DNA of 64,000 nucleotides from Candidatus Aenigmatarchaeota archaeon (GCA_016432325.1 CP066684.1:64001-128000), one strand, 5' to 3'; shown: positions 2,802-63,372, numbered from the stretch's first letter. Notes: generated by a model not told the origin, from the letters alone. Program-made: numbers and translations.

Positions 2802-3037
2802 TGAGCATCATACGCGCGAAGGAGATGAGGTCGATGGAAGAGCGGGAACTTCGCAAGCGCGTCGACGAGTTGAGACTCGAGCTTACGAAATCGCAGGCTC
2901 AGGTGGCCATAGGCGGCGCGCCGCCGAATCCGGGCAGGATAGGGGAGATAAAGAGAACAATCGCACGCGCGTTGACGATAAGGAGGGAGCGCGCATCAAA
3001 GTCACAATCGCAGAAACCCGCAAAACGAGGTGCATGA
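2801..3037 (+). CDS. rpl29: 50S ribosomal protein uL29
   Basis: MSIIRAKEMRSM...NPGRIGEIKRTIARALT; TAATG overlap with rps3. Confidence 0.95.
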   Translation: MSIIRAKEMRSMEERELRKRVDELRLELTKSQAQVAIGGAPPNPGRIGEIKRTIARALTIRRERASKSQSQKPAKRGA

Positions 3038-3091
3038 AACATGGTTTCATACCTCCTCGCTTCGAAAAAATCCAGAGGTGACAAGAAATAG
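3034..3091 (+). repeat. gene-start hairpin element before sui1
   Basis: ATGAAAC-ATG-GTTTCAT stem, anti-SD ACCTC, SD GAGGTG; uORF 3041-3091. Confidence 0.7.
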
Positions 3092-3414
3092 CAGAAGTAT
3101 GCCCCAACTGCGGGCTTCCAAAGGCTCTGTGCGTCTGCGAGACGATGGCCAAGGAGAGCGAGAAGATAAAAATCTCCGTGGAGAACAGGCGATTCGGCAA
3201 GGACGTTACGATAGTCGAAAACGTCCTTGAGGGCATGAATCCCCAGATGATAACGAAGACGCTAAAGCAGAAACTCGCGTGCGGCGGGACATACAAGAAC
3301 GGCCGCATAGAACTGCAGGGCGACCACCTGAGACGCGCCGAGGAAATCCTCGTCTCACTGGGGTTCGACAAGGCGCAGATAGAGAAAGGCGGCAGAAAAA
3401 GGATGGGCCGGTGA
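3088..3414 (+). CDS. sui1: translation initiation factor aIF1/SUI1 (apparent ATA start)
   Basis: AEVCPNCGLPKALCVCE zinc knuckle lies in frame upstream of the ATG at 3145; LKQKLACGGT, IELQGDH; SD GAGGTGA 6 nt before ATA; in-frame TGA at 3079. Confidence 0.9.
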   Translation: MAEVCPNCGLPKALCVCETMAKESEKIKISVENRRFGKDVTIVENVLEGMNPQMITKTLKQKLACGGTYKNGRIELQGDHLRRAEEILVSLGFDKAQIEKGGRKRMGR

Positions 3415-3698
3415 TGCGTACGATAACTCCGGGAAACGTCGTGAATCATGAGCTGATAGGGTTGAAGGTGAAGGTCGTGGAAGCGGATAATAAGGCACAG
3501 AAGGGAATCGAAGGCCGCGTCGTCGACGAGACGAAGGGCTCGCTCGTCGTGGAAACGCAAAGAGGAGAGAAGAAAGTGGATAAGAAAGGACGAACGTTCG
3601 CATTCACAATCCCAAGCGGGAAGCGCGTGCGCGTCGACGGAAACGTCATCGCGTATCGACCGGAAGACCGCATCAAGCGAAGATTGGAGAAGTGGTGA
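3414..3698 (+). CDS. rnp1: RNase P protein Rpp29/POP4
   Basis: NVVNHELIGLKVKV, GIEGRVVDET, RPEDRIK; canonical position after sui1. Confidence 0.94.
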   Translation: MRTITPGNVVNHELIGLKVKVVEADNKAQKGIEGRVVDETKGSLVVETQRGEKKVDKKGRTFAFTIPSGKRVRVDGNVIAYRPEDRIKRRLEKW

Positions 3699-3701
3699 AG
3701 G

Positions 3702-3887
3702 ATGAAAGTAATCGAGGTTAGAGACAAGAGGAGAGTCGAACACTATCTGGTTCCCTCCGGAACGCTGGCGGATTTGGAGAGAAAGGCGATAGCGCTCGAT
3801 GACGTGATTCCGCTCTGCGATAGACTGCCCGAATACAAAGGGCATGTCGATTATACAGTAACGCTTGAGAGAAAGGTGGCGAAATGA
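3702..3887 (+). CDS. small hypothetical protein inserted between rnp1 and uS17
   Basis: 61-aa ORF with GGTGA SD and ATGA overlap to rps17. Confidence 0.55.
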   Translation: MKVIEVRDKRRVEHYLVPSGTLADLERKAIALDDVIPLCDRLPEYKGHVDYTVTLERKVAK

Positions 3888-4225
3888 GCGTGCGTGACAT
3901 AGGAATCGACGTGACGAAACCGGCCGGTACGTGCAGCGACGCGAAGTGCCCGTTCCACGGAACTCTGCCCGTGCGCGGTCGAGTCTTCAAAGGCGAAGTG
4001 ATAAGCAGCCTCGCTGCGAAATCCGCCACAGTGCGCTGGGAGTTCGCCCAGTTCGTCACGAAATACGAGCGCTATGCGCGCAGAAACACCAAGGTCGTGG
4101 CTTACAGTCCTTCATGCATAGGCGCCAAGAAGGGCGACATCGTACGAGTCGCGGAGTGCAGGCCTCTGAGCAAGACGAAGCGTTTCGTAGTCATCGAAAA
4201 AGTAACTGCAGGTGAGAAAAAATGA
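3884..4225 (+). CDS. rps17: 30S ribosomal protein uS17
   Basis: CSDAKCPFHG, ECRPLSKTKRFVV. Confidence 0.97.
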   Translation: MSVRDIGIDVTKPAGTCSDAKCPFHGTLPVRGRVFKGEVISSLAAKSATVRWEFAQFVTKYERYARRNTKVVAYSPSCIGAKKGDIVRVAECRPLSKTKRFVVIEKVTAGEKK

Positions 4226-4281
4226 AATGTCAACGCCATTTCAGATTTACCTCACACAAGACACAGGAGGTTCGGTAAAAA
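4222..4281 (+). repeat. gene-start hairpin element before rpl14
   Basis: AAAAATGA duplicated; TGAAATG/CATTTCA stem; ACCTC...GAGGT; uORF 4222-4278. Confidence 0.75.
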
Positions 4282-4680
4282 ATGAGACCCGTCTCGGCCA
4301 GGATAATCAAGGGAATCAACCACAGCGCGTGGCTGGACTGCGCGGACAACTCAGGAGCGAAAATCCTCAGGGTGTTCACGGTGAAAGGTTACAAGGGAAC
4401 CAAGCGCCGCATGGTAAAGTGCGGCGTCGGAGACGTCATAATGTGTTCCGTAAAGCGCGGAACCCCGAAGATGAGGGAAGAGACGCCTCTGGCCGTTGTC
4501 ATACGCCAGCGCAAGGAGTACAGGAGATACGACGGCCGCCGCATAAAGTTCGAGGACAACGCGGCCGTACTGGTCAACGATCGCCTGGAGCCGCGCGGCT
4601 CTGAGATCAAGGGCGCGGTGGCAAAAGAGGTAGTGGTCCGGTTCCCGAGCGTCGGGAAGATGGCCAGCATAGTGGTGTAA
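4282..4680 (+). CDS. rpl14: 50S ribosomal protein uL14
   Basis: CADNSGAK, FEDNAAVLV, IKGAVAKE. Confidence 0.97.
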   Translation: MRPVSARIIKGINHSAWLDCADNSGAKILRVFTVKGYKGTKRRMVKCGVGDVIMCSVKRGTPKMREETPLAVVIRQRKEYRRYDGRRIKFEDNAAVLVNDRLEPRGSEIKGAVAKEVVVRFPSVGKMASIVV

Positions 4681-4682
4681 AT

Positions 4683-5201
4683 ATGCGCATAAGATCCGTC
4701 CAGCCGAGAAAACAGCGCGCGTACGTGTACAACGCGCCCCTGCACACTCGCCAGAAGCTCGTGCACGCGGCCCTGGACAAGAAACTGCGCAAGGAATACG
4801 GTCGGCGCTCGCTCGCGCTGAGGAAGGGAGACAAGGTCGAAGTGATGAGAGGCTCGTTCGCCGGCGTCAGAGGCGAGATAAAGGAAGTGGACCTCAAAGA
4901 CCTGCGAGTTACGGTGGACGGCGTGAAGAGGAAGAAGGCAGACGGAACCGAAGTGCAGGTTCGCATGCATCCCTCGAATTTGAGAATCATCGAAGCCCTG
5001 GTGGACGACAAGAAACGCGCTCGCATAATAGAGCGTTCGGGAGGCAAGGTCACACTCACAAAGAAAAAGACAGAGAAGGAGGCAAAGGCCGCACACACGG
5101 AAGGGGTAAAGTGTCCCCTATGCAGCGAGACGTTCGAAAACAACGCGGCGGCCAACGTGCACGTGACAGAGAAGCACAAGGAGTACGCACAACAGCAATG
5201 A
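4683..5201 (+). CDS. rpl24: 50S ribosomal protein uL24 with C-terminal C2H2 zinc finger
   Basis: QPRKQR, KOW motif KGDKVEVMRG, HPSNLRII; tail CPLC-x12-H-x4-H. Confidence 0.96.
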   Translation: MRIRSVQPRKQRAYVYNAPLHTRQKLVHAALDKKLRKEYGRRSLALRKGDKVEVMRGSFAGVRGEIKEVDLKDLRVTVDGVKRKKADGTEVQVRMHPSNLRIIEALVDDKKRARIIERSGGKVTLTKKKTEKEAKAAHTEGVKCPLCSETFENNAAANVHVTEKHKEYAQQQ

Positions 5202-5211
5202 CGGTGAACAT

Positions 5212-5904
5212 ATGGTTCGTGTAAAAAGGATTTCAGCGCCGGCGACATTCCCGGTACCGCGCAAGACAGGAGGCAGGTTCGCCCCCACTCCCAGCGCAGG
5301 TCCCCATTCAAAGAGCGAGTGCGCTCCGCTCCTGACGGTAATAAGGGACGCACTGAAGCTGGCTTCGACTGCAAAGGAGGCCCGCGCAGCCATAGTCTTG
5401 GGCAAGGTCACTGTCAACGGCGCCGTGCGCAAAGATTACAGGTTTCCCGTCGGGATATTCGACGTGGTCGGAGTCGCAGGCGAACACTATCGCGCGCTCC
5501 CGACTGCCAGCGGACTGGCGTTCATGAAGACGCCGAAGAAGGACGCTGAACTAAAGCTGTACAGGGTTGAGAACAAGACCGTCGTGCGCGGAGGCCGCGT
5601 CCAGATGAACCTGAGCGACGGAACCAACATACTGGCCGATGCCGGCGCGTACGCGACAGGAGACACGCTGGCCCTCAAACCCGATTTAAAGGTTGCGGCC
5701 CACGTGAAACGGGCCAAAGGCGCCGTCTGCGTGCTCATCCGCGGCCGCAACATCGGCAAACTCGCCGTGATTGAGAGCGTCAACCTCGTCCGCGGGACAG
5801 GAGAGAACACGGCGAACCTCAGGCTCGGCGATTCGGTCATACAGGTTCCCGTGAACACGATATTCGTGGTCGGCGACAAGGAGCCGATAATCAAGATGGA
5901 GTAG
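5212..5904 (+). CDS. rps4e: 30S ribosomal protein eS4
   Basis: KRISAP, GPHSK, VRKDYRFPVGIFDV. Confidence 0.96.
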   Translation: MVRVKRISAPATFPVPRKTGGRFAPTPSAGPHSKSECAPLLTVIRDALKLASTAKEARAAIVLGKVTVNGAVRKDYRFPVGIFDVVGVAGEHYRALPTASGLAFMKTPKKDAELKLYRVENKTVVRGGRVQMNLSDGTNILADAGAYATGDTLALKPDLKVAAHVKRAKGAVCVLIRGRNIGKLAVIESVNLVRGTGENTANLRLGDSVIQVPVNTIFVVGDKEPIIKME

Positions 5905-5911
5905 GGTTACG

Positions 5912-6478
5912 ATGCAGGAGACAAAGATGGAAAATGCGATGCGCGACATTCGAACGCGTAGCGTTCGAAGCGCTTCGAACCCGATGTTCGAAGGAGTGCG
6001 CGTGGAAAAGGTGACGCTCAATATAGGAGTCGGAGAAGGAGGAGACAAGCTCCAGAAGGGAGCGACTCTCCTGAACGCTCTCGCCGGCCAGACCGTTTAC
6101 ATGGCCAAGGCGCTGAAGCGAACGACCTTCGGCACGCCGCGGGGCAGGCCCATAGGCGCGAAGGTCACTCTCCGCGGAGCGAAGGCCGAGGAGTTCATAA
6201 AGCTCGCGTTGCGTTCAAAGGACAACAAGATCCCGGAGAAGGCGTTCGACAGCACGGGCAACCTCTCGTTCGGGGTCGCGGAGCACATAGACCTGCCGGG
6301 CGTGCGTTACGATCCCAAGATAGGAGTATTCGGCATGGACGTCTGCATCACGCTGGGAAGGCCCGGATACAGGGTGAAGAAGAAGGCCCGTCCGACGCGC
6401 GTGGGAAAGACGCACCTGTTGACGCGCGAGGACGCGATGGAGTTCATGCGCAAGAAGTTCGGGGCTGAACTCGTATGA
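5912..6478 (+). CDS. rpl5: 50S ribosomal protein uL5 (alternative start 5927) carrying an in-frame palindromic insert
   Basis: [32 protein letters not shown]. Confidence 0.96.
5949..5992. repeat. in-frame double hairpin insert in rpl5
   Basis: two TTCGAAC-n-GTTCGAA hairpins. Confidence 0.8.
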
Positions 6479-6618
6479 CGGAGAAAATGAAGAACGTAAA
6501 GAATTGCAGGCGTTGCGGCAAGAGCAACGGAGGAATAATCACGCGATACGGCCTGCTGTACTGCAGGCAGTGCTTCCGCGAGGTCGCGGAACAGATAGGA
6601 TTCAGGAAGTATGATTAG
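6475..6618 (+). CDS. rps14: 30S ribosomal protein uS14 (zinc type; absent from the ORF track)
   Basis: manual translation [15 protein letters not shown]...[23 protein letters not shown]. Confidence 0.95.
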
Positions 6619-6626
6619 GTGGGAAC

Positions 6627-7013
6627 ATGAGGCACGACACGCTCGCAGACGCGCTTTCGGCGATAAGAAACGCCGAGCACGTGGGGAAGAAGAGTTGCGT
6701 AGTCCCGGCTTCGGCCCTCGTCAAGAACGTGCTGGCGCTGATGCAGAAGCGCGGTTACGTCGGGGAGTACGAGTTCGTGGACGACGGCAAGAGCGGCTTC
6801 TTCCGCATAGCGCTCGCGGGCAAGATAAACGACTGCGGCGTCGTGAGGCCGCGCTTCTCTGTGGAGCGCAACAAGTACGTAAAGTGGGAGAAGAGATTCC
6901 TGCCGTCGGACGGCTTCGGCTGCCTGCTGGTTTCCACGTCCAAAGGGGTCATGGACAACGACGAAGCGAAGAAGGCGCGCACAGGAGGCGTGCTGGTAGG
7001 ATACATCTATTAG
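6627..7013 (+). CDS. rps8: 30S ribosomal protein uS8
   Basis: DTLADALSAIRNAE, VSTSKGVM. Confidence 0.97.
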   Translation: MRHDTLADALSAIRNAEHVGKKSCVVPASALVKNVLALMQKRGYVGEYEFVDDGKSGFFRIALAGKINDCGVVRPRFSVERNKYVKWEKRFLPSDGFGCLLVSTSKGVMDNDEAKKARTGGVLVGYIY

Positions 7014-7022
7014 GTGTTCGGC

Positions 7023-7544
7023 ATGGAAGCGACTATTGAAGTTCCAGAGGACGTCACAGCAGTGATGGAAGGCGCGAACGTGCGCGTCAAGGGACCGAAG
7101 GGCGAACTTTCCAGAAGTTTCAGGAGCCCCTTGGTCAGCGTGGCCCTTCACGACGGCGCGTTCAGGATAACGTCCCGCGACGAGCGACGCGCGACACGCG
7201 CGCTAGTCGGCACGTGGCGAGCGCACCTGCGCAACATGTTCACCGGCGTCACGGCCGGCTACGAGAAGAAGATGAAGATAATCCACGTCCACTTCCCGAT
7301 GAGCGTCAAGATAGAGGGCGCCCGCGTGGCGGTGCAGAACCTGTTGGGACAGAAGAGTCCCAGATACGCGCGCATAGAGACCGGTGTAGAGGCGAACATC
7401 GAAGGCGACGAAATATCGGTAAAAGGAACGAGCAAGGACGCCGTCGGACAGACCGTGAGCAACATAGAGACAGCCACGAAGCTGGCCAACAGGCGCGACC
7501 GCCGCAGGTTTTACGACGGCGTGTATCTCGTGAAGGCGAAGTAG
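7023..7544 (+). CDS. rpl6: 50S ribosomal protein uL6
   Basis: VKGPKGEL, HFPMSVK, DRRRFYDGVY. Confidence 0.96.
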   Translation: MEATIEVPEDVTAVMEGANVRVKGPKGELSRSFRSPLVSVALHDGAFRITSRDERRATRALVGTWRAHLRNMFTGVTAGYEKKMKIIHVHFPMSVKIEGARVAVQNLLGQKSPRYARIETGVEANIEGDEISVKGTSKDAVGQTVSNIETATKLANRRDRRRFYDGVYLVKAK

Positions 7545-7592
7545 TTCAAAAGTTTCCCGTGCGAAGCAAGGGAAGCCTGAAATGGTGAGGAT
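7543..7592 (+). repeat. hairpin element before rpl32e
   Basis: AGTTCAAAAG duplicated; TTCCC/GGGAA stem inside TTCA/TGAA. Confidence 0.55.
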
Positions 7593-7970
7593 ATGTCAGA
7601 AAAGTTCAAAAGGCAGATGTGGTGGCTGAAGAAGCTCGGCAAGAGCTGGAGACGGCCGCGAGGCAAGCAGAACAAGCTGCGCCAGGAGATGAAAGGCAAG
7701 GGCAGGCTGCCCACAGTGGGTTACGGAAGCCCTGCGGCAGAGCGCGGCAAGCACCCCTCTGGGATGTACGAATTCATGGTGTTCAACGTCGCCGATGTCG
7801 CGCGTGCAGACGCGAAACATGCGATTCGCATCGCGGGCTCTGTCGGAACGAGGAAAAGGCTGGACATCATGAAGGCATGCAAAACGAAAGGGCTGACTGT
7901 CCTGAATCCGGGTAAAAAGACGATTGAAATGATGAACCAGAAAGCAGACAAGAAGGAGGCAAAGACGTGA
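7593..7970 (+). CDS. rpl32e: 50S ribosomal protein eL32
   Basis: KFKRQ, SWRRPRG, VGYGSP, HPSG, VLNP. Confidence 0.94.
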   Translation: MSEKFKRQMWWLKKLGKSWRRPRGKQNKLRQEMKGKGRLPTVGYGSPAAERGKHPSGMYEFMVFNVADVARADAKHAIRIAGSVGTRKRLDIMKACKTKGLTVLNPGKKTIEMMNQKADKKEAKT

Positions 7971-8152
7971 TCATACACAGGAGCGAAAATGCGTGCCCGA
8001 TATGCGGCATAGTGGGACAGCCGATCGTCCTGAACGAGGGTTCAAAGGCGCATAAGGCCCACAACTGCCGCACCTGCGGGACCGTGTTCAACGCCTTCGG
8101 CGTGATACTTTCGCCGCACGAACACGCGGCGGATGAGATGGAGCTAAACTAG
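7967..8152 (+). CDS. small zinc-ribbon protein (CxxC...CxxC)
   Basis: CPICG and CRTCG; GTGA overlap with rpl32e; GGAGG SD. Confidence 0.7.
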   Translation: MIIHRSENACPICGIVGQPIVLNEGSKAHKAHNCRTCGTVFNAFGVILSPHEHAADEMELN

Positions 8153-8161
8153 GGTGTACGT

Positions 8162-8214
8162 ATGAACCAAATGAAACCACCGTTTCAAAAGTTCATGCAG
8201 TGCAGGTGAAGAAC
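8162..8214 (+). repeat. gene-start hairpin element before rpl19e
   Basis: ATGAACC duplicated; ATGAAC..TGAAAC-CACC-GTTTCA..GTTCAT. Confidence 0.75.
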
Positions 8215-8685
8215 ATGAACCTGAAAAACCAGCGAAGGATGGCGGCAACGGTCTTGGACTGCGGCAACGACAAGGTATGGATGGACCCAGCGCATGAGGC
8301 CGACATAGCCCAGGCCATAACGCGCGCCGACGTGCGCCGGCTCCTGCTGAAGGGGTACATAAAGAGGGCGAAGGTCAACCTTCAGTCCCGCGGCCGCGCG
8401 CGCGTGCTGCGCCAGAAGAAGCTCAAGGGCCGCAGGAGCGGACCTGGCAGCAGGAAAGGCTCGGCTCTCGCAGGCATGACCAAGAAGCGCCGCTGGATAG
8501 GAACGATACGGCCGCTCAGAGTGCGTCTCCGCGAACTGCGAGACATAGGGGCCCTGAAGGAAGGTTCGTATCGCCACCTCTACCGCATGGCCAAGGCAGG
8601 CGCGTTCCGTTCAAAGTCGCACTTGAACCTGTACATAAAGGAGAAAGGTCTCATGAACGAGACGCCGAGCAAGAAGGTGAAGTAA
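8215..8685 (+). CDS. rpl19e: 50S ribosomal protein eL19
   Basis: MNLKNQRRMAA, KVWMDP, GPGSRKG. Confidence 0.96.
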   Translation: MNLKNQRRMAATVLDCGNDKVWMDPAHEADIAQAITRADVRRLLLKGYIKRAKVNLQSRGRARVLRQKKLKGRRSGPGSRKGSALAGMTKKRRWIGTIRPLRVRLRELRDIGALKEGSYRHLYRMAKAGAFRSKSHLNLYIKEKGLMNETPSKKVK

Positions 8686-8689
8686 CGAT

Positions 8690-9172
8690 ATGGCAAGGTC
8701 AGCGATCCACATAGTTCAGCACAGGCGAAGAAGGGAACAGAAGACGGACTACCAGCTGCGCCTCTCCCTGCTGAGAAGCGGGATGCCCCGCGTTGTCGTG
8801 CGAAAGAGCAACCTGTACGTGCGCGGGCAGATAATAAACTACGAAACCGCGGGAGACCGCGTTGTGGCGCAGGCCGACAGTGCAGAGCTGAAGGCGATGG
8901 GATGGAAGCACAGCTGCGCGAACGTGGCGGCTTCGTATCTCACGGGCCTCCTTCTCGGCAAGAGAGCCGGCGTGAAGGACGCGATCTTCGACATCGGCCT
9001 GCAGAGAAGCACCAAAGGGAACGTGCTCTACGCGTTCCTCAAAGGCGTCGTCGACGCCGGCGTTGCGGTGCCCCACAATCCTGAAATCATGCCCCCGGCA
9101 GACAGGCTGAACGGCAAACACATCAAGGCAGAGGCCGAGTTCGAGACTGTAAAGAAAAAAATATTGGGTTGA
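8690..9172 (+). CDS. rpl18: 50S ribosomal protein uL18
   Basis: RRREQKTDY, RVVVRKSN, AASYLTGLL. Confidence 0.96.
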   Translation: MARSAIHIVQHRRRREQKTDYQLRLSLLRSGMPRVVVRKSNLYVRGQIINYETAGDRVVAQADSAELKAMGWKHSCANVAASYLTGLLLGKRAGVKDAIFDIGLQRSTKGNVLYAFLKGVVDAGVAVPHNPEIMPPADRLNGKHIKAEAEFETVKKKILG

Positions 9173-9176
9173 TGTT

Positions 9177-10001: not shown

Positions 10002-10006
10002 TGACG

Positions 10007-10381
10007 ATGATGATTGCTGTGGTAAGGATACGGGGGAGCGTCGGTACGCGCACAGACGTTGAGGACGCTCTCATACAGATGGGCCTCAAGGAACAGCACT
10101 CGTGCGTCGTGGTACCTCAGATACCGTCGTATCTGGGAGTGCTGCGCAAGGTAAAGGATTACGTCACTTGGGGAGTCGTGGGCGAGGACGTCGCGAAGAA
10201 GCTCCTCGTCGCCAAGAAACTCAAACATTCGGACGATAAAACGAATCCGTACAAAGGGCTGGTGTTCCACCTGGCTCCTCCGAGGAAGGGTTTCAAGAAT
10301 TCGATAAAGACCCCCTATCCGCGGGGCGAACTCGGGGACAGGAAGAACACGATCGGAGAGCTCATAGAGAGGATGATTTAG
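10007..10381 (+). CDS. rpl30p: 50S ribosomal protein uL30
   Basis: IAVVRIRG, KVKDYVTWG, FHLAPPRKGF; start could be 10001 or 10010. Confidence 0.94.
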   Translation: MMIAVVRIRGSVGTRTDVEDALIQMGLKEQHSCVVVPQIPSYLGVLRKVKDYVTWGVVGEDVAKKLLVAKKLKHSDDKTNPYKGLVFHLAPPRKGFKNSIKTPYPRGELGDRKNTIGELIERMI

Positions 10382-10382
10382 C

Positions 10383-10787: not shown

Positions 10788-10792
10788 GTTTG

Positions 10793-20973: not shown

Positions 20974-21017
20974 TCACCGAACCTCGTGAGGCAAGTTTGA
21001 AATCCGCATGATTTCAT
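20974..21017 (-). repeat. gene-start hairpin element before proS
   Basis: ATGAAATC-ATGCG-GATTTCA...CCTCAC GAGGTTCGGT, similar to the rpl14 copy. Confidence 0.7.
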
Positions 21018-38839: not shown

Positions 38840-38883
38840 TTACTTTATGAATAGTTCAAAGAAAGTTTGAAACCGCCGTTTCC

Positions 38884-39657: not shown

Positions 39658-39783
39658 TTACTGGTCCCTCCTCGCCTTTCCGAGTGTACGAGACTGCGGT
39701 CTCGACATGTTCGGCCGAGGGCCGAACTTTTCGAACCGCTGTTCGAAAATGTCGAAACTTTGTTTCGTACACGGTAAATCCAT
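39658..39783 (-). repeat. multibranch gene-start element
   Basis: TAAATGGA duplicated; four nested hairpins; 41-aa uORF ends in TAA abutting the ATG. Confidence 0.85.
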
Positions 39784-40186: not shown

Positions 40187-40254
40187 TTACCGGTCCCTCC
40201 TCATGCTTCTAATAGGTAAATATGAAACGGCAGTTTCATGCATGTCCTTCCCAT
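40187..40254 (-). repeat. gene-start hairpin element
   Basis: ATGAAAC-TGCC-GTTTCAT; ATTTACC/GGTAAAT; 3' end GAGGAGGGACCGGTAAATGG. Confidence 0.75.
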
Positions 40255-44670: not shown

Positions 44671-44727
44671 ATGGCAGAAACAGATGTTTCGTATCTACAG
44701 CTCAGATACGCAAAGAGGGACCCGTAG
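44671..44727 (+). repeat. gene-start hairpin element before the tadC-like gene
   Basis: ATGGC duplicated; GAAAC/GTTTC and CGTATCT/AGATACG; GAGGGACCCGTAG-ATG. Confidence 0.8.
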
Positions 44728-46943: not shown

Positions 46944-47039
46944 ATCGAACTATTGAAACTGCGTCTCGGAACGCCGCGTTCCGAGTATTTCGAACCGAAG
47001 TTCGAAAAGTTTCAAAGTTCCTCCAGAAGGTGCGTATAA
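46944..47039 (+). repeat. multibranch gene-start element before a pilin
   Basis: ATCGAACTA/ATGGAACTA duplication; TTGAAACT/AGTTTCAA enclosing two hairpins; TAA abuts the ATG. Confidence 0.85.
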
Positions 47040-47183
47040 ATGGAACTACCGACAGGAATAATAGTAGCGGTCGTCCTGATAATAGCAATGGCAGTCTTGC
47101 TGCTGTCTGCCGGCGGACAGGTGGCGCAGGCCGGCGTCAAGGTCATAAGCGACTGCGGAATATACTGCGCTATAAAAGGGTGA
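47040..47183 (+). CDS. small pilin-like protein lacking a basic leader (absent from the ORF track)
   Basis: MELPTGIIVAVVLIIAMAVLLL...CGIYC; compare KG|LELPTN at 54075. Confidence 0.7.
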   Translation: MELPTGIIVAVVLIIAMAVLLLSAGGQVAQAGVKVISDCGIYCAIKG

Positions 47184-49224: not shown

Positions 49225-49228
49225 TATC

Positions 49229-54388: not shown

Positions 54389-54682
54389 ATGTCAAAGAAA
54401 GGAATCGAACTGCCGGTGAACGCGCTGATAATCATGTTCCTGGCCGTGGTAGTTCTTGCCGGAGTCATCGCGATATACACGGGTGTCTGGCAGCCGTCCC
54501 AAAAGACGACGACGCAGGCCTCGGATTTCAACGCCGAATGCGCGAAGTACTCGGCTATTGGATGCTGTGGTGACGATACGCTGTCTGGATGCTCCACGCA
54601 GAAGAGCCAGGTCGTGAGCAAAGCATCGACGTTGGGAATAACGAGCGCGGCAGACGCCGTCAAGCGCTGCTGCGGCGAGTGA
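54389..54682 (+). CDS. class III signal peptide pilin, 6-Cys family
   Basis: KKG|IELPVN; C..CC..C..CC. Confidence 0.8.
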   Translation: MSKKGIELPVNALIIMFLAVVVLAGVIAIYTGVWQPSQKTTTQASDFNAECAKYSAIGCCGDDTLSGCSTQKSQVVSKASTLGITSAADAVKRCCGE

Positions 54683-54686
54683 TACC

Positions 54687-55130: not shown

Positions 55131-55200
55131 ATGCCTGAAATTTCCGAAACAAGTTTCGTCATTCCAGCCATGGGAGGTTTGAGATATGCCTGAAATCCCC
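55131..55200 (+). repeat. gene-start element at psmA, 67/70 identical to 60374-60443
   Basis: ATGCCTGAAAT duplicated at both ends. Confidence 0.92.
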
Positions 55201-55902: not shown

Positions 55903-56020
55903 GAAAATAGCATGCAGCCAAAGCGCCATTCCTTCTGTGGGTATCGGCGCGGAGGCAAAACGTAAAAACGAAACGCACGAAGCGTTTCAATCTTGCCGCG
56001 TTATGCGGCAAAGTGATTCG

Positions 56021-56719: not shown

Positions 56720-56745
56720 CGATCAAAACACGAGGTGTATGAAAG

Positions 56746-57492
56746 ATGAATGGAACTATGGAAGAGAACGTGGAGAGCGCGCCGGCGCCTATGGATCCCG
56801 GAAGCGTTCTGATTGCAAGCAACAAGAGTATCGTCGTACCGGGCGAGCTCATCGCCAAAGGCGTTGACTTCTTGCCGGGCAGCGGCACGTATAAGGAAGC
56901 CGGAGAAGTGCGCTCGAAGGTTCTGGGCCTCGTCCGCATAAAGAGCGACAGGCTCATCAGCGTCGTCCCTCTTTCTGGCCAGTACATGCCTTTCGCAGGC
57001 GACGGAGTGATCGCAGTCATCGCGGACGTTCAGATATCGTCCTGGATGGCCGACGTCAACGCGCCTTACGTGGCGTTCTTGTCGCTCTCCGAGGGCGTAG
57101 AGGAGTACGTCGACTTGCAGAAGTCTGACCTCACGCACTACTACGACGTGGGCGACGTGATATACGCCAAGGTGCTGAGCGTTTCGAAACGCAAGGACGT
57201 GAAGCTCACGATGAGAGATCGCATGTGTCGCAAACTTCACGGCGGCAACACGATGAAAATAACGCCGACGAAGGTCCCGCGCCTGATAGGCAAGGGCGGT
57301 TCGATGATAGAACTGATAAAGCAGAAGACCGGATGCCACATAATCGTCGGCCAGAACGGCCTGGTCTGGATAAAAGGAGAAAAACAGGATCTGGCCGCGG
57401 AAGCCGTGCTGCTCGTTGAACGCGAGAGCCACGTGGAAGGGCTGACGGATCGCATGACGGCCTTTCTCGATTCGATACAGCAGGTGATATGA
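56746..57492 (+). CDS. rrp4: exosome RNA-binding subunit Rrp4
   Basis: IVVPGE, S1 domain, KH motif KVPRLIGKGGSM, GQNG. Confidence 0.95.
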   Translation: MNGTMEENVESAPAPMDPGSVLIASNKSIVVPGELIAKGVDFLPGSGTYKEAGEVRSKVLGLVRIKSDRLISVVPLSGQYMPFAGDGVIAVIADVQISSWMADVNAPYVAFLSLSEGVEEYVDLQKSDLTHYYDVGDVIYAKVLSVSKRKDVKLTMRDRMCRKLHGGNTMKITPTKVPRLIGKGGSMIELIKQKTGCHIIVGQNGLVWIKGEKQDLAAEAVLLVERESHVEGLTDRMTAFLDSIQQVI

Positions 57493-57493
57493 T

Positions 57494-58264
57494 ATGAGCG
57501 AAGAACACAAGAAGATTATTGTTGGAGACAGAAGGCCCGACGGCCGCGCACTCGACGAGATGAGACCCATAACAGCCAAGGCGGGCGTGATTTCGCGCGC
57601 CAACGGCTCCGCGCATTTCGCCATGGGCAGTACCGTCGCAATCGCCGCGGCATACGGCCCGCGCGAGCTGCACCCCAAACACCTGCAGGACCCGGTCCGT
57701 GCGTATCTCAAGTACGTCTACGCCATGGCGCCGTTCTCCACGCAAGATCGCGTAAAGCCCGGCCCGTCAAGACGCTCGACTGAGATAAGCGAAGTCTCTC
57801 GACAGGCGTTCAACTCCGTGATATTCCTGGAGGAGTTCCCCAAGGCAGGGATTGAAGTCTTCGTCGAGATACTGCAGGCCAACGCCTCGACGCGATGCGC
57901 AGGAATAAACGCCGCGTCAATCGCGCTCGCCGACGCAGGCGTGCCGATGACCGATCTCGTATCCTCCTGCGCCGCAGGCAAGGTCGACGGAAAGATAATC
58001 CTGGACGTCGCGGGAGAGGAAGACACGGAAGGAGAAGTGGACATGCCGATAGCGTACATACCCCGCAAGGACGAGATCGCGCTGCTCCAGATGGACGGCC
58101 TGCTGACTCTCGACGAGTTTAAGGAGGCGCTTGAACTGGCGAAGAAAGGCTGCATGCAGATACACGAAAAGCAGGTGGCCGCGCTGAAGGAGCGCTACGT
58201 GCGCGTCGCCTCTGAGATAGCGAAGAAGGGGCCTGTGCGCGAGAGCGCAGAAGAGGTGGCTTAA
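57494..58264 (+). CDS. rrp41: exosome exonuclease Rrp41
   Basis: RPDGR, YGPRE, PSRRSTEIS. Confidence 0.96.
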   Translation: MSEEHKKIIVGDRRPDGRALDEMRPITAKAGVISRANGSAHFAMGSTVAIAAAYGPRELHPKHLQDPVRAYLKYVYAMAPFSTQDRVKPGPSRRSTEISEVSRQAFNSVIFLEEFPKAGIEVFVEILQANASTRCAGINAASIALADAGVPMTDLVSSCAAGKVDGKIILDVAGEEDTEGEVDMPIAYIPRKDEIALLQMDGLLTLDEFKEALELAKKGCMQIHEKQVAALKERYVRVASEIAKKGPVRESAEEVA

Positions 58265-58320
58265 ATGATAACCAAAATCTTGAAACTCTGTTTCAAATTT
58301 TCGTACCAGAGGTGGATGAT
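58265..58320 (+). repeat. gene-start hairpin element before rrp42
   Basis: ATGATAAC(C/G)AAAATC duplicated (14/15); TTGAAAC-TCT-GTTTCAA. Confidence 0.88.
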
Positions 58321-59109
58321 ATGATAACGAAAATCGACAAGGAATTCATAAAAACGCTCGCCCGCGAAGGCAAGCGCGAAGACGGCCGCGCGTTCGACCA
58401 GTTCCGCGACCTGAAAATCGAGACGGGCTTCGCCAAGAACGCAGAAGGCTCGGCGCTCGTGACTCTCGGAGAAACGCGCGTGCTCGCAGGCGTGAAGCTT
58501 TCGGTCGGAACGCCGTTCGCCGACACGGCGAACGAGGGCGTGCTGATGGTGAACGCAGAGCTTGGCCCGAAGGCTTCGCCTGAATTCGAGACAGGCCCTC
58601 CGAAAGAAGGAGCCATCGAACTGGCCCGCGTCATAGACCGCGGCATCCGCGAATCGAAGTGCATCGATCTGGAAGCGCTTTGCATCACGCCGAAGGAAAA
58701 GGTCTGGATGGTGTCGGTGGATATAGACCCGATAAACGACGGCGGGAACATACTGGACGCCGCAGGCATAGCCGCGATTGCCGCACTGCACGACGTCAAG
58801 ATACCGAAACTCGACGAGGATGTAAGACCAATATTCGGCACGAACTCGGGAAAGCTCAAGCTGCGTCACATACCGATACCCGTCACGACATTCAAGGTCA
58901 ACGGGGCGCTCGTGATGGACCCTGACTTCGAGGAAGAAGCGTCTGCCGAGGCGCGTCTGACCGTGACGAGCGTCGAGGGTTTCCTCTGCGCGATGCAGAA
59001 GGGCGGCGAGAGCAACTTCAAGACAGAAGAGGTAGTGCGTGCCGCAGAGACGGCGTACGCCAAGGCGACGGAACTGCGTGAAGTCGTAAAACAGGCCGTC
59101 GGCCTTTGA
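58321..59109 (+). CDS. rrp42: exosome subunit Rrp42
   Basis: REDGR, AEGSALV, ELARVIDRGIRES. Confidence 0.96.
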   Translation: MITKIDKEFIKTLAREGKREDGRAFDQFRDLKIETGFAKNAEGSALVTLGETRVLAGVKLSVGTPFADTANEGVLMVNAELGPKASPEFETGPPKEGAIELARVIDRGIRESKCIDLEALCITPKEKVWMVSVDIDPINDGGNILDAAGIAAIAALHDVKIPKLDEDVRPIFGTNSGKLKLRHIPIPVTTFKVNGALVMDPDFEEEASAEARLTVTSVEGFLCAMQKGGESNFKTEEVVRAAETAYAKATELREVVKQAVGL

Positions 59110-59179
59110 CGTTTTACACTTCCCGCAGGAAGCTGTATATGCTTAAATAGCCTACATTGAAACAGAATCACGTGATGAT

Positions 59180-59434
59180 ATGCCGGCCAAGAAGATAGGC
59201 TCTGCAGGACGCTTCGGTTCGCGCTACGGACGCAAACTGCGCAAGGACGTCTCTGATATTGAGGCCGTTCAGCGCGCTTTCCACGAATGTTCGTCGTGCC
59301 GCAAGGTCGCGGTCAAGCGCGTTGCGTTCGGAATCTGGCAGTGCCGCTCGTGCAATCGCAAGTTCGCCGGAGGCGCGTTCAAGCCTCAGGCCCATCCTTT
59401 CAAAGAGACGATACAGAAAGCGGCGGGTGCGTAA
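59180..59434 (+). CDS. rpl37ae: 50S ribosomal protein eL43 (L37ae)
   Basis: GRFGSRYG, CxxC...GIWQCxxC, FAGGAF. Confidence 0.96.
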   Translation: MPAKKIGSAGRFGSRYGRKLRKDVSDIEAVQRAFHECSSCRKVAVKRVAFGIWQCRSCNRKFAGGAFKPQAHPFKETIQKAAGA

Positions 59435-59435
59435 T

Positions 59436-59576
59436 ATGCCTTACAAATGCCTTTCGTGCAGGAAAGAAATATCGACAGAAGACGTGAAGAAGCGCGTGCG
59501 CTGCCCGTACTGCGGCTACAGGATTCTCGTCAAGACGCGCGCGGCCGTGAAAACAGTGCACCTCAAGACTGGTTAG
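59436..59576 (+). CDS. rpoP: RNA polymerase subunit Rpo12 (P)
   Basis: YKCLSC...RCPYCGYRILVK. Confidence 0.93.
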   Translation: MPYKCLSCRKEISTEDVKKRVRCPYCGYRILVKTRAAVKTVHLKTG

Positions 59577-60066
59577 CCTTCACGGTCAGCACCGCTTTCA
59601 AAACGCCTGACGACGGCCAATACGATTTTACTTCGAAGTCCGTGTCCATCTCGAATTCCGGAGAAGTCCACTCGCTCTGAGGCGGAACCTTCGGAGAATT
59701 GAACTTTGCGCTTTTGAAGTCCAGACCGCCATAATAAACGTCTTCGGTCGTCTTGAACTTTATTTTTGCCTTCGTCTGTGCTATCGTGATGCTCGAGATG
59801 CGCGTGCCGTCCTCCCTGTAGAAGCCGTTGTCGTCTGCGAGGACCGTGTACGTCACGGTCTCGGGAGGCTGTTGCTCCTGTTGGGTCCGATTCTGTTCCA
59901 CCAGAGGTTCCTGCGGCGTTGTGTTCTGCTGCGCGGTTTCGTTGGCCATTTCCTGCTGTTCTATCTCTCCAGCGGCGTCTTGCCGAGCCTCTTCGCTCGG
60001 CGTCTGGTAGCCGCCTGTGCAGCCTGCCACGAGAACCAGAAGTGCAATAAAGGCGAGCTTGTTCAT
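59563..60066 (-). CDS. putative lipoprotein
   Basis: MNKLAFIALLVLVAG|C lipobox, Gln-rich linker. Confidence 0.75.
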   Translation of the reverse strand: MNKLAFIALLVLVAGCTGGYQTPSEEARQDAAGEIEQQEMANETAQQNTTPQEPLVEQNRTQQEQQPPETVTYTVLADDNGFYREDGTRISSITIAQTKAKIKFKTTEDVYYGGLDFKSAKFNSPKVPPQSEWTSPEFEMDTDFEVKSYWPSSGVLKAVLTVKANQS

Positions 60067-60114
60067 ACGCCACGTTGGCAAGCCCTATATAAAAAACCCG
60101 CGCGTACCAAACGC

Positions 60115-60333
60115 ATGCGCGCGACACTTGAGATAAAGACGAAGCATCCGAAGGCCGTTCTGGAAGCGATAGCCGTGGACGAAGAGACGTCGAAGCGCGT
60201 TCGCATCAGGCCAGGCGCGAAGGACGGCGTGTTGCGCGTTGTCATAGAGGCCGACGACTTCTCTGCGTTGCGCGCCGGCGTGACGACTTACATGCGTTTG
60301 GCCAAGGCAGCGCTTGCGGGTCTGGGCGAGTGA
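60115..60333 (+). CDS. pcc1: KEOPS complex subunit Pcc1
   Basis: IEADDFSALRAGVTTYMRL; position between rpoP and prefoldin. Confidence 0.85.
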   Translation: MRATLEIKTKHPKAVLEAIAVDEETSKRVRIRPGAKDGVLRVVIEADDFSALRAGVTTYMRLAKAALAGLGE

Positions 60334-60373
60334 TTTCCCGAACGTATAAATAGCTGCATATTCGTTTCGTTTT

Positions 60374-60443
60374 ATGCCAGAAATTTCCGAAACAAGTTTC
60401 GTCATTCCAGCCATGGGAGGTTTGAGACATGCCTGAAATTCCC
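60374..60443 (+). repeat. gene-start element at pfdB, 67/70 identical to 55131-55200
   Basis: direct sequence comparison. Confidence 0.92.
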
Positions 60444-60794
60444 CAGCAAGCGCAGCAGATGATAATGCAACTGCAGGCCGCGCAGCAGCAGTTGCAGGCG
60501 TTCGCCATGCAGAGGCAGTCGCTCACCATGCAGAAGCACGAGATTGAAAAGGCGACAGAAGAACTCACGAGCGCGAACGACAAGGAAGACGTCTACAAGC
60601 TATCCGGTCCCATAATGGTCCGTTCGACAAAATCAAAACTTCTGGACGAACTCAAGGAGCGCATAGCAAAGATAGATTCCGGAATCAAGCGGCTTGAAGA
60701 CCACGAGAAGAAGATAGCCGAAAAGGCGCAGGAGAACCAGACCAAGCTCGAAAAGATGTTTGCCCCGCCTGAAACCAAGGGACAGGCCGGTTAG
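60429..60794 (+). CDS. pfdB: prefoldin beta subunit
   Basis: coiled coils flanking VYKLSGPIMV. Confidence 0.93.
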   Translation: MPEIPQQAQQMIMQLQAAQQQLQAFAMQRQSLTMQKHEIEKATEELTSANDKEDVYKLSGPIMVRSTKSKLLDELKERIAKIDSGIKRLEDHEKKIAEKAQENQTKLEKMFAPPETKGQAG

Positions 60795-60835
60795 GCGCCC
60801 GATTTGTTTATTAATAAACCCGGACCATTCTAACC

Positions 60836-61177
60836 ATGGCTCTCGTGCTGGACCCGCTGACGCTGGGCGACACTCTCTCGGCGATAATACTGATAATCGC
60901 GGCCGTCATAAACTGGAAAGTATTCCACATGTACTACAAGTCTGCGGTAAAGCCGAAGGGCAGGTACTTCCTGACCCTCGGGCTTCTGCTGTTTGCCATA
61001 CTCAACCAGGGCGTCGCAGTCATACTGGTTTACAGCGGACTCGTCACCATAGAACTGACAAACACGAACCAGGCCGCTTACATAGTCTTCGTGCTGCTCA
61101 AGTCGGTGGGACCGATAGTGATATTTTACGCGAGCCTCCTGATGTATCAGGAAGCGAAGAGGCTTATCGTGGTCTAG
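60836..61177 (+). CDS. small membrane protein
   Basis: 3 hydrophobic segments. Confidence 0.65.
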   Translation: MALVLDPLTLGDTLSAIILIIAAVINWKVFHMYYKSAVKPKGRYFLTLGLLLFAILNQGVAVILVYSGLVTIELTNTNQAAYIVFVLLKSVGPIVIFYASLLMYQEAKRLIVV

Positions 61178-61545
61178 CCGCTCAGCAGCGCATAGTATTT
61201 CTCGACGGCACGACGGTCTATCTTCTTGTCGAAGAACGCGTGCGGCCGCGTCGCTCCGGAAAAAGTCTTGGGGATGTGGAGAAGTTCGTGTATCAGCGTC
61301 TTTGTCTGTTCCTCGAAGGACTGCTTGTCGAAATGTTCTGACAGCACTTCGATCACGTAGTGCGGACGCACGGCAAGCGCCTTCTGCCACACGCGCGGCA
61401 AAGACCATATCCGCGCGTACGCGCGCGCTTTCGAGCCGTGCGAACGGAAGCACTTGATGCGGAAGGGGTCCACGTGCTTCAGGTCGAGACGGTTCACAAG
61501 AGTATGCACGCGCGCTTCTATGTCCTCTGCTTTTTCGAATCTCAC
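61174..61545 (-). CDS. putative metallopeptidase
   Basis: HELLH motif, YARIW, YVIEV. Confidence 0.82.
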   Translation of the reverse strand: MRFEKAEDIEARVHTLVNRLDLKHVDPFRIKCFRSHGSKARAYARIWSLPRVWQKALAVRPHYVIEVLSEHFDKQSFEEQTKTLIHELLHIPKTFSGATRPHAFFDKKIDRRAVEKYYALLSG

Positions 61546-62138
61546 AGTATCTCCTCCGCTATTTCGAGCAGCCCGCGCAGGCTGTCTATGGCGTAGTCGG
61601 CCTTGTATTCGTTCTTCTCGGGTTCGACGAGATGGAACACCGTTGTCATTCCAAGGTCTTTCGCGGTTTCAAGATTCTCCTGCCTGTCGTCCACGAAAAC
61701 GCATTCGCTGGCGTTGACGCCTAGGGCCGCGCATGCCTTTCTGTAAATCGCAGCGTCCGGTTTCGCGCTCTTCACCTCCTCGCTGATTACCACGGCTTCG
61801 AACGCGTCCGCAATGCCGAAGCGCTTCAGCAGGGAGCGCAGGAGGAACGCGTCCGCGTTGGAGACGATGGCTATCGCATAGTTCTTCTTCAGCTCTTCAT
61901 GGACTGCTTTGAAGTCCGCGTCGAGTTTGAAGGTTTCGATGAGTCTCTGTTCGATACGCGCGTGGTCTTTGACGCCCATCTTTTTCCAGAACGCCTCGCG
62001 CGTGAGCTCGCCGCGCTCGTACGACTGGTAAATGGGCCTCACGCCGGCCATGTCCTTCTTCAGGAAAGCCGCGATCGTGTTTGTTATGTAGCGGGGCTGC
62101 GCTATCACTCCGAAGAAGTCCAGCAGGATCGCTTGCAT
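61542..62138 (-). CDS. HAD-superfamily hydrolase
   Basis: LLDFFGV, SNAD, KPDAAIY, FVDDRQEN. Confidence 0.9.
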   Translation of the reverse strand: MQAILLDFFGVIAQPRYITNTIAAFLKKDMAGVRPIYQSYERGELTREAFWKKMGVKDHARIEQRLIETFKLDADFKAVHEELKKNYAIAIVSNADAFLLRSLLKRFGIADAFEAVVISEEVKSAKPDAAIYRKACAALGVNASECVFVDDRQENLETAKDLGMTTVFHLVEPEKNEYKADYAIDSLRGLLEIAEEIL

Positions 62139-62170
62139 ACGCGTGTTTCCGCGCGCGAGGATAAATCCGT

Positions 62171-63178
62171 TTAGTCGTGCACGAGAGGCGCAATCTTGCG
62201 CGGTTCAAAGCCGTTGCCGTTGGTGGTGTCCTTGTGTCTAATTTCCACCCACCCCGCGACGCGCTCGGCAATAGCATCTGGAGTGAAGCCGGCCTTGCGG
62301 TACAGGTCTTTCGGCGAGCCGGTCTCCCCCTTCTCGGCCCCTATTCTGCGCATGTGGGTCGGATACCTCTCCGAAAGCACGTCAGATACACTGCTCCCCA
62401 GCCCGCCGTCTATGCTGTGGTCTTCTGCTGTTACGACAAGACCGGTCTTCCTTGCATACTGTTCGATAAGCAAAGAGTCTATCGGTTTTATGGACGAGAT
62501 GTTTATCACCGCCGCACTCACGCCAGATCCCTCCAGCAGTGCTGCGGCTCCCAGCGACGGTTCTATCAGCGCCCCATAGCTCATTATCGCTACGTCGTCG
62601 CCGTCGCGAAGCACCTCGCCCTTTCCTATAGACCATTCCCAGTTGTCGTCGTGCAACGTCAATACTTCTGCGCGGGTCATGCTCATCGTCGCGGGTCCCG
62701 CGTATTTCGGGTCTTTTACGTTTGCGAGTTTGACTGTCATCTGTTTCGCTTCAACCCAGTCCGCCGGGCATAACACGGTGTCCGAGATCGCCTTGTTGTA
62801 TGATAGATAGTTGAGAACCTGGTTGCTCACGCCGTCTTGTCCGACCTGCAAGCCGACATGGCTGCCTACCTTGCAGACGTTGAGCTTCGCGCGCCTGACT
62901 ATCTGTTCGAACGGTTCGGCGGCGAGTTTGGAGAATCCCTCGAAGGTGGCGTAATAGACGCGTTCGCCTGTACGATGCGCCGCACCAGCCGCCATTGTGA
63001 CGCTGTCCTGTTCCGCTATGCCCGCATCAACGATGCGCCGCGGGTACTGTGCAGCGAAGTCCGCGAGGGACATGGAATTGCCAAGGTCCGATACGTAAAC
63101 GCGGATATTGTGCGTCTTGGCCGCTTCCACAGCGCCCCGACCGAGGCCGCTTCTCATCGATTCGTGCTGGCCCTTCAT
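62171..63178 (-). CDS. transketolase C-terminal (pyrimidine-binding/C) subunit
   Basis: GIAEQ, GQDGVSNQ, SIKPID, AEDHSIDGGLG. Confidence 0.93.
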   Translation of the reverse strand: MKGQHESMRSGLGRGAVEAAKTHNIRVYVSDLGNSMSLADFAAQYPRRIVDAGIAEQDSVTMAAGAAHRTGERVYYATFEGFSKLAAEPFEQIVRRAKLNVCKVGSHVGLQVGQDGVSNQVLNYLSYNKAISDTVLCPADWVEAKQMTVKLANVKDPKYAGPATMSMTRAEVLTLHDDNWEWSIGKGEVLRDGDDVAIMSYGALIEPSLGAAALLEGSGVSAAVINISSIKPIDSLLIEQYARKTGLVVTAEDHSIDGGLGSSVSDVLSERYPTHMRRIGAEKGETGSPKDLYRKAGFTPDAIAERVAGWVEIRHKDTTNGNGFEPRKIAPLVHD

Positions 63179-63372
63179 GCGCGACTCCCTCCTTCTCCGC
63201 GCTGCACGGGAACCGCAGTCCCCGGCATTTTCGAACAGCGGTTCGAAACTTTACGAATAGCTATTCGTAAACTTGCGACCGCGTCGCAAGAGTTCGACCG
63301 AAGGCCGAACATGTCGGGAAGCTCCACTTCCCGTACAGGGAAGGATGAAACCGCGTGTTTCGTGCCCTTCAT
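63179..63372 (-). repeat. 194-bp multibranch element between the transketolase subunit genes
   Basis: ATGAAGGGC 9-bp direct repeat; seven hairpins; shares modules with the 39658 element. Confidence 0.9.

Follow-up and report, generated by a model that had tools for sequence, protein, structure and literature searches.

Why do so many genes in one stretch of an archaeal genome carry, directly at their start codon, a short hairpin-bearing insert that repeats the gene's own first bases? We studied this question in bases 64001-128000 (hereafter the window; 64,000 nt) of a Candidatus Aenigmatarchaeota archaeon genome (G000; a single contig of 874,869 bp, 56% GC, 90% complete). By Pfam, the window covers an archaeal ribosomal-protein operon together with proS, genes for pili and the exosome, psmA, pfdB and a transketolase split in two. 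Among named relatives, its PsmA is closest to that of 'Candidatus Aenigmatarchaeota' metagenome-assembled genomes (MAGs; 61-63% identity), and the host appears to be a tiny DPANN archaeon with Aenigmatarchaeota genomes as its closest named relatives. For comparison we used a same-genus genome (G001; 540 kb, fetched whole), which has 69-75% nucleotide identity to G000 in matched stretches, and an order-wide set of 22 genomes including G000 and G001, in which the relatives are draft MAGs. Gene coordinates beyond those listed in the first-pass annotation of the window came from a crude in-house gene caller with a simple open reading frame (ORF) score.

The inserts share one plan. We read them as insertion modules that are gained and lost, that rebuild the initiation region or the end of a gene, and that belong to a hairpin family of the whole order; we put the chance that this reading is right at about one half. 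The first-pass annotation had listed about 13 inserts, and all 13 were located at or near their places by direct reading (Table 1). To these we add an in-frame insert in rpl5, leader hairpins of SBDS, a hairpin at a convergent 3' junction and the exact pilin-like site. The inserts measure 45-190 bases, and dozens of copies occur at gene ends in G000. All modules in the window are oriented the same way as their gene.

A module runs T1-H-T'-S-T2, where T1 is a copy of the old start, H a hairpin, T' the reverse complement of the start, S a linker with a Shine-Dalgarno sequence (SD) and T2 the true start. H is mostly (A)TGAAAC-N4-GTTTCA(A/T), and S often carries (T)TGGTGA(A/T)GT. The model case is rpl19e, which reads ATGAACC / TGAAAC-CACC-GTTTCA / GTTCAT / AGGTGA / ATGAACC. 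The inverted copy T' was absent from the layout proposed earlier, and what that layout called an 'anti-SD' is in most cases reverse-complementary not to the SD but to the duplicated start or to stop plus start (ATTTAC/GTAAAT). The direct duplications could be read as described for rrp42 (ATGATAAC(C/G)AAAATC, 15 nt with one synonymous difference), psmA (ATGCCTGAAAT, carried by pfdB too), tktC (ATGAAGGGC), rpl19e (ATGAACC), the tadC-like gene (ATGGC) and the pilin-like gene at 47040 (AT(C/G)GAACTA), while the duplication at rpl14 is AAAAAATGA. Type B, found at g40186, tadC, the 3' part of g39657 and seven sites outside these, reads ATG-CATGAAAC-N4-GTTTCAT-ATTTAC..CTCAGA..GAGGGACC.GTAA and then directly ATG; its ATTTAC pairs with GTAAAT, made up of the stop and the first two start-codon bases. 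The larger copies (g39657, tktC, pilin-like) contain extra TTCGAAC-type hairpins, nested or in series. H and the T:T' stem are separated by unpaired A-rich spacers. A bulge-helix-bulge intron was considered and rejected, as the helices are separated by a 4x3 internal loop and not by two 3-nt bulges around a 4-bp helix (judged by eye).

Both T1 and T' are specific to the gene they precede. We took 25 genes solely because they had a GAAAC hairpin 18-40 nt upstream, and permuted the genes. Downstream of the hairpin, complementarity between the next 16 nt and the start of the same gene extends over a mean of 5.6 nt (permuted 3.86 +/- 0.20; 0 of 2000 permutations), and the 16 nt before the hairpin repeat that start over 6.12 nt (permuted 4.0 +/- 0.24; 0 of 300). 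A search for T1, T' and T2 that was blind to H yielded 16 genes, compared with 3.0 in controls at equal score; together with about ten type-B copies, this amounts to about 25-35 start modules in G000. Among all genes whose start region recurs upstream, the ATG-to-ATG distances cluster sharply at 51-60 nt. The signal that the SD block is borne by the element is weak, with AGT following GGTGA in 4 of 14 module genes and in 5 of 98 others.

The hairpins are far more frequent than expected. Eight GAAAY-N3-6-RTTTC hairpins occur in the window versus 0.98 +/- 0.94 in dinucleotide shuffles, and 0 of 100 shuffles reached eight. The whole of G000 contains 75 such hairpins, and 545 perfect hairpins with a stem of at least 7 bp (about 370 in two of three Markov controls), of which 294 lie in the 16% of the genome called intergenic. 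GAAAC hairpins were found 29 times only before a start, at no more than 70 nt (3.1 expected at random), 5 times at a stop/start junction (0.7 expected), 12 times only after a stop, at no more than 30 nt (0.9 expected), and 12 times inside genes (62.7 expected). In total, 34 of the 75 are start-proximal (up to 70 nt upstream), where 3.8 were expected, and the enrichment is about 9-fold before starts and about 13-fold after stops. The enrichment after stops is thus as strong as that before starts, and copies also occur in frame and in leaders without a duplication; the family marks both gene ends and is not exclusive to starts.

Copies are spread over the order. TGAAAC-N4-GTTTCA occurs 21 times in G000, twice in G001 and 0-5 times in each of the other 20 genomes, and is present in 16 of the 22 genomes, whereas the reversed control pattern has 0 occurrences across all 22. 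The 16-mer TGAAACTGCGGTTTCA is present at least 7 times. Other families of the order show the same plan in a plainer form, in which T spans the SD, the spacer and the ATG, e.g. GGTGATTAAATG or the 18-nt GGTGAAGTTTATGCAAAA.

Empty sites, which the first-pass annotation had suggested looking for in relatives, are common in G001. They occur at rpl14, rpl19e, rpl5, rpl32e, sui1, proS, psmA, pfdB and rrp42, and at about ten module genes outside the window. Conversely, four modules are present in G001 only, where G000 is empty (G000 positions 553101, 98548, 60017 and 653211). T is native sequence, since psmA of G001 starts with MAEIP, rrp42 with ATGATTACTAAATTG and the gene at 298041 with ATGAAGTGC. 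These comparisons indicate that inserts are gained or lost on the time-scale of species. The 97% identity of the psmA and pfdB modules looks like the signature of copy-paste, and the psmA module may have been copyable into pfdB because both genes natively begin with MAEIP. A mobile element with target-site duplications, as first proposed, agrees with the direct target repeats that flank the inserts and with gain and loss, but the length of the repeats is not fixed: it ranges from about 3 to 27 nt, with about 40 nt at G000 321359. The hallmarks of classical miniature inverted-repeat transposable elements, shared terminal inverted repeats and a fixed-length target-site duplication, were not found. 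A metagenome search for close strains with rpl19e and 5.6-kb flanks returned no relatives.

How could a gene keep working with such an insert at its start? In G000, the TATA box of the first genes of transcription units starts at -32 to -29 from the ATG, so that transcripts are mostly leaderless. T1 of promoter-proximal modules lies at the same distance from the TATA box (read by eye), and at operon-internal sites T1 retains the old overlap with the upstream stop. SDs in G000 are largely operon-internal or module-borne. In the proposed mechanism, T would be the host gene's own end, S would bear an SD at 5' ends, and units would survive solely at gene boundaries or in frame. The old start T1 would stay as a decoy, usually as a leaderless 5'-terminal AUG or as an AUG coupled to the upstream cistron, and T' could pair with T1 to hide it. 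The true AUG (T2) would become internal and be served by the new SD, which must be supplied because the insert makes the real AUG internal in a mostly leaderless host.

The decoy ORFs are 4-65 codons long, and every T2 is an ATG or GTG with its own SD. Their stops agree with the earlier description. TAA or TAG immediately precedes the ATG in g39657, g40186 and tadC, the stop lies inside or beside the new SD in sui1, rpl14 and rpl19e, it overlaps the start by 8 nt in psmA and pfdB, ATGA coupling is seen in rrp42 and at both ends of tktC, and the proS decoy ORF continues out of frame. All nine type-B copies examined stop directly at the main start, at ATG-to-ATG distances of 54, 57, 87 or 126 nt, all multiples of 3, and in seven type-A copies the decoy ORF is ended by the TGA within GGTGA. 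The NTGA (-4) overlap occurs at rrp42 and tktC only; the other stops are at -3, at -7 to -10 inside the SD, or in the 8-nt overlap. Some decoy starts have decayed (ATC at 46944, ATA in G019). The TGA of GGTGA, an abutting TAA/TAG or an ATGA overlap would close the decoy ORF at the true start, and ribosomes could therefore also reach T2 by termination-reinitiation. Termination-reinitiation across such distances is documented in archaea (review PMC12548453).

Several points weigh against gained-and-lost insertion modules. The rps4 module is retained in G000, G001 and the distant G019, and no known mechanism writes an inverted target copy into an insert. Gene calls are crude and the relatives are only draft MAGs. 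G000 has no gene for an IS200/RAYT transposase, TnpB or a reverse transcriptase, and only two ordinary tRNA-adjacent integrases. Finally, in the rpl44e modules of three congeners all stem differences are compensatory and T1, T' and T2 change together, a pattern that points to host-level constraint or templated homogenisation and not to neutral junk.

The first-pass annotation had proposed a search for a HUH/RAYT/IS200-type transposase or a reverse transcriptase. The Y1 profile PF01797 found no match in G000, while as a control it responded in 6 of 14 genomes; the reverse transcriptase PF00078 and TnpB (PF07282) were likewise absent from G000. Two tyrosine recombinases (G000:C1:289077-290255 and 782962-784149), 44% identical and each beside an interrupted tRNA gene, share the upstream motif ..CATTCTATGG..ACTATATA.TCCGGCGGAGGTTA and are probably integrated elements. 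They were rejected as the responsible enzyme, being tRNA-adjacent paralogues typical of integrated elements and having no link to the hairpins. An autonomous element was also rejected: within 3 kb, no gene is bracketed by two H hairpins, the one exception being two copies 155 nt apart. Viral contigs scanned for ATGAAAC-N4-GTTTCAT gave single chance-level matches per contig and no multi-copy carrier.

The rpl44e modules deserve closer description. They occur in 6 of 17 compared genomes of the order, and T1 and T' are each fitted to the gene's own codons 2-3. G017 and G015 have ATGAAAAT / TTTTCAT / ATGAAAAT, whereas G019 has ATGGAAAT / ATTTCCAT / ATGGAAAT, so that one position is changed in all three segments. 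The H stem shows a compensatory change (GGGAC/GTCCC versus GGAAC/GTTCC), and T1-H-T' is far better conserved than the linker. This pattern could stem from re-insertion in which T and T' are templated, from homogenisation, or from selection for a switch. Within genus g4, pairwise identities are ambiguous between a single origin and re-insertion (small tree).

Selection for a switch leads to the rival that survives best, a three-segment translational switch of the host, which we regard as possible, though doubtful. The true start would be free while T' is paired with T1, and hidden, with the SD looped out, when T' pairs with T2 instead. Ribosomes on the decoy ORF, or a protein bound to H, would decide between the two states, and mobility would be a mere means of spread. 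The rpl44e pattern fits this proposal, and so do the type-B helices, in which 90% of cells are paired versus 84.5% in shuffles, ten cells are changed on both sides versus 3.4 (0 of 500 shuffles), and the stop (TAA/TAG) and start (ATG/GTG) covary with the 5' arm. However, related copies are not independent, and the covariation counts therefore overstate the case. T' is complementary to both T1 and T2, and predicted folds use either about equally, T1 in some modules and T2 in others. This makes the exclusive pairings possible and keeps the leader-peptide or alternative-pairing control of the first-pass annotation alive. The type-B lengths in multiples of 3, with the decoy stop always at -3, also suit a switch. 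In contrast, most sites are empty in the congener, including those of housekeeping genes without a common theme, the same units stand after stops, in frame in rpl5 and in leaders without duplication, and the decayed decoy starts fit poorly. Furthermore, a sense-strand wobble test for RNA-level selection showed no excess of G.U over A.C (8 G.U-type versus 15 A.C-type mismatches, a small sample). Attenuators of the ermC type combine a short leader ORF with a central segment able to pair either upstream or with the initiation region, hiding SD and start. The modules resemble them in having a leader ORF and a T' predicted to pair alternatively, but attenuators are fixed and gene-specific, whereas the modules are dispersed, share a hairpin, and come and go between species.

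A second rival dispenses with a mobile element, and we consider it improbable. Neighbouring sequence would be duplicated and inverted locally in the course of replication or break repair, through template switching, through fold-back synthesis or because the polymerase slips at hairpins. T and T' do copy local sequence, the repeat length is variable, tandem units occur in G001 rpl44e and at G000 321359, and a transposase was not found. H and the SD block, however, are non-local and recur near-identically at unrelated genes and across families, the A-rich spacers are unexpected from simple fold-back extension, and the psmA module was copied whole into pfdB.

Translational bypassing, raised in the first-pass annotation, is very improbable. 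Ribosomes would hop from T1 to the matched codon in T2, as in T4 gene 60 or the yeast mitochondrial byp elements. In its favour, the gap of about 50 nt between the matched codons contains a 5' hairpin and an SD, features shared with gene 60 (bioRxiv 10.1101/2022.08.31.505936), and T1 and T2 differ synonymously in rrp42 and pfdB. Against it, each T2 brings a start codon and an SD of its own and so does not require a hop, the take-off codon is not generally followed at once by a stop or rare codon, several T1 starts have decayed and the in-frame rpl5 insert contains no stop.

In the literature we came across no account of elements of this kind from DPANN archaea. REP/REPIN-RAYT and IS200/IS605-derived elements are likewise dispersed, multi-copy extragenic hairpins, but REPs lack the target-derived repeats that the modules carry, and G000 lacks Y1 (RAYT/TnpA) and TnpB. 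Rickettsia palindromic elements and other 'codogenic' repeats are small palindromic inserts that are tolerated in frame in essential genes. The 48-nt rpl5 insert is of the same kind by description, whereas most copies here are non-coding and rebuild a gene end. The T4 gene 60 bypass cassette (MobA-associated) and the mitochondrial byp elements are mobile, about 50 nt long, and combine a hairpin, an internal SD and matched flanking codons (bioRxiv 10.1101/2022.08.31.505936). The modules also have matched T1/T2 repeats with an SD between them, but their landing site is a complete initiation site, and a take-off stop or nascent-peptide signal is not evident. The statement that no start-targeting, coupling-preserving family is known has to be withdrawn in view of mycobacterial interspersed repetitive units (MIRUs), described as seemingly mobile short repeats that insert at start codons, with an internal ORF coupled to the gene at -4 nt and little harm to expression (review PMC12548453). 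MIRUs may be the nearest described parallel, and by analogy a precedent for start-site insertion; compared by description, the rrp42 and tktC modules show the same -4 coupling at the start. Unlike the bacterial MIRUs, the modules have a conserved hairpin, a direct plus an inverted target copy and their own SD, their decoy ORFs mostly stop at -3 or within the SD instead of at -4, and they also occur at gene 3' ends.

Table 1. Positions and features of the inserts in the window, with the state of the corresponding site in G001.
Feature	Position	Strand	Sequence features	Site in G001
sui1-upstream insert, inside old rpl29 3' tail	3034..3096	+	hairpin ATGAAAC-ATG-GTTTCAT 3034-3050; ACCTCC; SD AGAGGTGA; 15-codon ORF 3034-3081, ATGA-coupled to new rpl29 stop	rpl29-sui1 gap of only 5 nt
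rpl14 module	4222..4281	+	T1 AAAAAATGA overlapping rps17 stop; hairpin TGAAATG/CATTTCA 4223-4243; decoy stop TAA 4276-4278; ATTTACCTC complementary to GAGGT..GGTAAA	rps17/rpl14 overlap as ATGA (empty)
rpl5 insert, in frame, 48 nt	5947..5994	+	double TTCGAAC/GTTCGAA hairpin; 16 extra residues, MENAMRD[[16 protein letters not shown]]VRVEK; Pfam L5 match	MQNAMREVRIEK
rpl32e leader insert	7543..7592	+	repeat AGTTCAAAAG 7543-7552 and 7603-7612; hairpin TTCCC..GGGAA 7553-7575; spacer 48 nt	spacer 14 nt
rpl19e canonical type-A module	8162..8214	+	T1 ATGAACC 8162-8168; H TGAAAC-CACC-GTTTCA 8172-8187; T' GTTCAT 8191-8196; SD AGGTGA 8204-8209, its TGA closing the decoy ORF; T2 at 8215	empty
proS leader insert	20974..21017	-	old leaderless ATG 21017; hairpin GAAATC-ATGC-GGATTTC 20999-21015; CCTC/GAGG; SD GGTGA	leaderless, insert-free
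Gene-end hairpin, convergent 3'-3' junction	38869..38882		GAAAC-N4-GTTTC; AAGTAA stop region repeated	
g39657 (coiled-coil gene) branched multi-hairpin module, 126 nt	39658..39783	-	type-B 3' end GAGGAGGGACCAGTAA; 41-codon decoy ORF, TAA then immediately ATG; one of a four-copy family with covarying stems	
g40186 type-B module, 57 nt	40187..40243	-	ATGCATGAAAC-N4-GTTTCAT ATTTACC..GAGGAGGGACCGGTAA then immediately ATG	
TadC/T2SSF-like gene type-B module, 57 nt	44671..44727	+	TAG abutting ATG; 5' arm ATCTAC, a compensatory change	
Pilin-like gene (47 aa, start 47040) nested module, 96 nt	46944..47039	+	T1 ATCGAACTA (decayed start); outer stem TTGAAAC/GTTTCAA around two hairpins; T' AGTTCC; SD GAAGGTG; T2 ATGGAACTA	
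psmA module	55131..55185	+	T1 ATGCCTGAAAT; hairpin CGAAAC-AA-GTTTCG; SD GGGAGG; then T2	insert-free, N-terminus MAEIPGMGKL
SBDS leader, two hairpins	55970..56012	+	start not duplicated; Pfam SBDS match	missing from leader
rrp42 type-A module	58265..58320	+	T1 ATGATAACCAAAATC; H TTGAAAC-TCT-GTTTCAA; T' ATTTTCGT; SD GAGGTGG; decoy ORF ends in ATGA overlap	empty
pfdB module	60374..60428	+	copy of psmA module, 97% identical, both repeats included	leaderless, empty, N-terminus MAEIPPQAQQ
tktC array, 190 nt, between two transketolase subunit genes	63179..63372	-	at least 6 hairpins; ATGAAGGGC at both ends; 65-codon ORF, ATGA-coupled at either end	

Two of the inserts in Table 1 differ from their first description. 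At rpl32e, which was said to share the upstream-start layout, there is no decoy start, and its repeat is AGTTCAAAAG. The insert before sui1 was listed as duplicating the start, but its hairpin sits in the former 3' tail of rpl29 and truncates that gene, and a copy of the sui1 start is absent. At 3035-3091 this insert brings a TGA into rpl29, removing a lysine-rich tail. The former end of that tail, ..SKKSRGDKK*, can still be read in frame and matches ..NKKTGGGKK* of G001. The zinc knuckle of sui1/aIF1, CPNCGLPKALCVC, lies upstream of the first in-frame ATG at 3145 (window 3079-3147). In G001, sui1 starts with GTG directly before the first Cys, where G000 has GTA (3097-3099). G000 has gained an ATG where G001 has ATC, and the sole SD-spaced candidate start is ATA at 3088. 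From these sequences, sui1 of G000 would have either a non-canonical start or a recently shifted start that dropped the zinc knuckle.

In the proS leader (20974-21017, minus strand), the hairpin loop contains a further ATG, from which an 11-codon ORF, MRISNLPHEVR, runs to a TGA directly against the proS ATG. Its single Pro codon could fit amino-acid sensing, but one Pro in 11 codons is not significant.

Several other features of the genome were noted. A simple gene caller overlooks two small pilin-like genes, at 47040-47183 (MELPTGIIVAVV..) and 54389-54683 (MSKKGIELPVNALII..). The C-terminal extension of rpl24 (172 aa; window 5100-5201) resembles a C2H2 zinc finger (CPLCSETFENNAAANVHVTEKH), Pfam shows L24/KOW only, and an ORF of the same length lies at the matching position of G001. 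A 61-aa four-cysteine ORF between rpl32e and rpl19e (window 7967-8152) is conserved in G001; Pfam assigns it no family. The 64-kb window contains no tRNA gene and no Rfam match at gathering score, and a tRNA or Rfam family was rejected as explanation of the inserts. In the whole of G000, ARAGORN reported 3 plain tRNA genes and 12 with introns allowed, several of them doubtful; this low count fits heavily interrupted tRNA genes.

If the modules are as they seem, a selfish insert lands where a gene is most sensitive and leaves the gene working. The insert would supply a spare ribosome-binding site, re-create the start, and silence or couple the old start. Each insertion would convert a leaderless gene to an SD-led gene, which is especially relevant in a mostly leaderless host. 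Only tentatively, the modules might be movable translation leaders that fit themselves to each gene: an undescribed templated route, using no known transposase, would write the initiation region, direct and inverted, around a protein-recognised hairpin, and the resulting bistable leader would be kept by three-way covariation. This would in effect be a transposable riboregulator. For annotation, the start codons of about 30 genes of G000 are easily miscalled. No transposition or repair route described so far accounts for the inverted segment derived from the target, or for the way it covaries with both copies of the start. Hence, the family may point to a new mechanism at the DNA level or to a new class of movable translational control.

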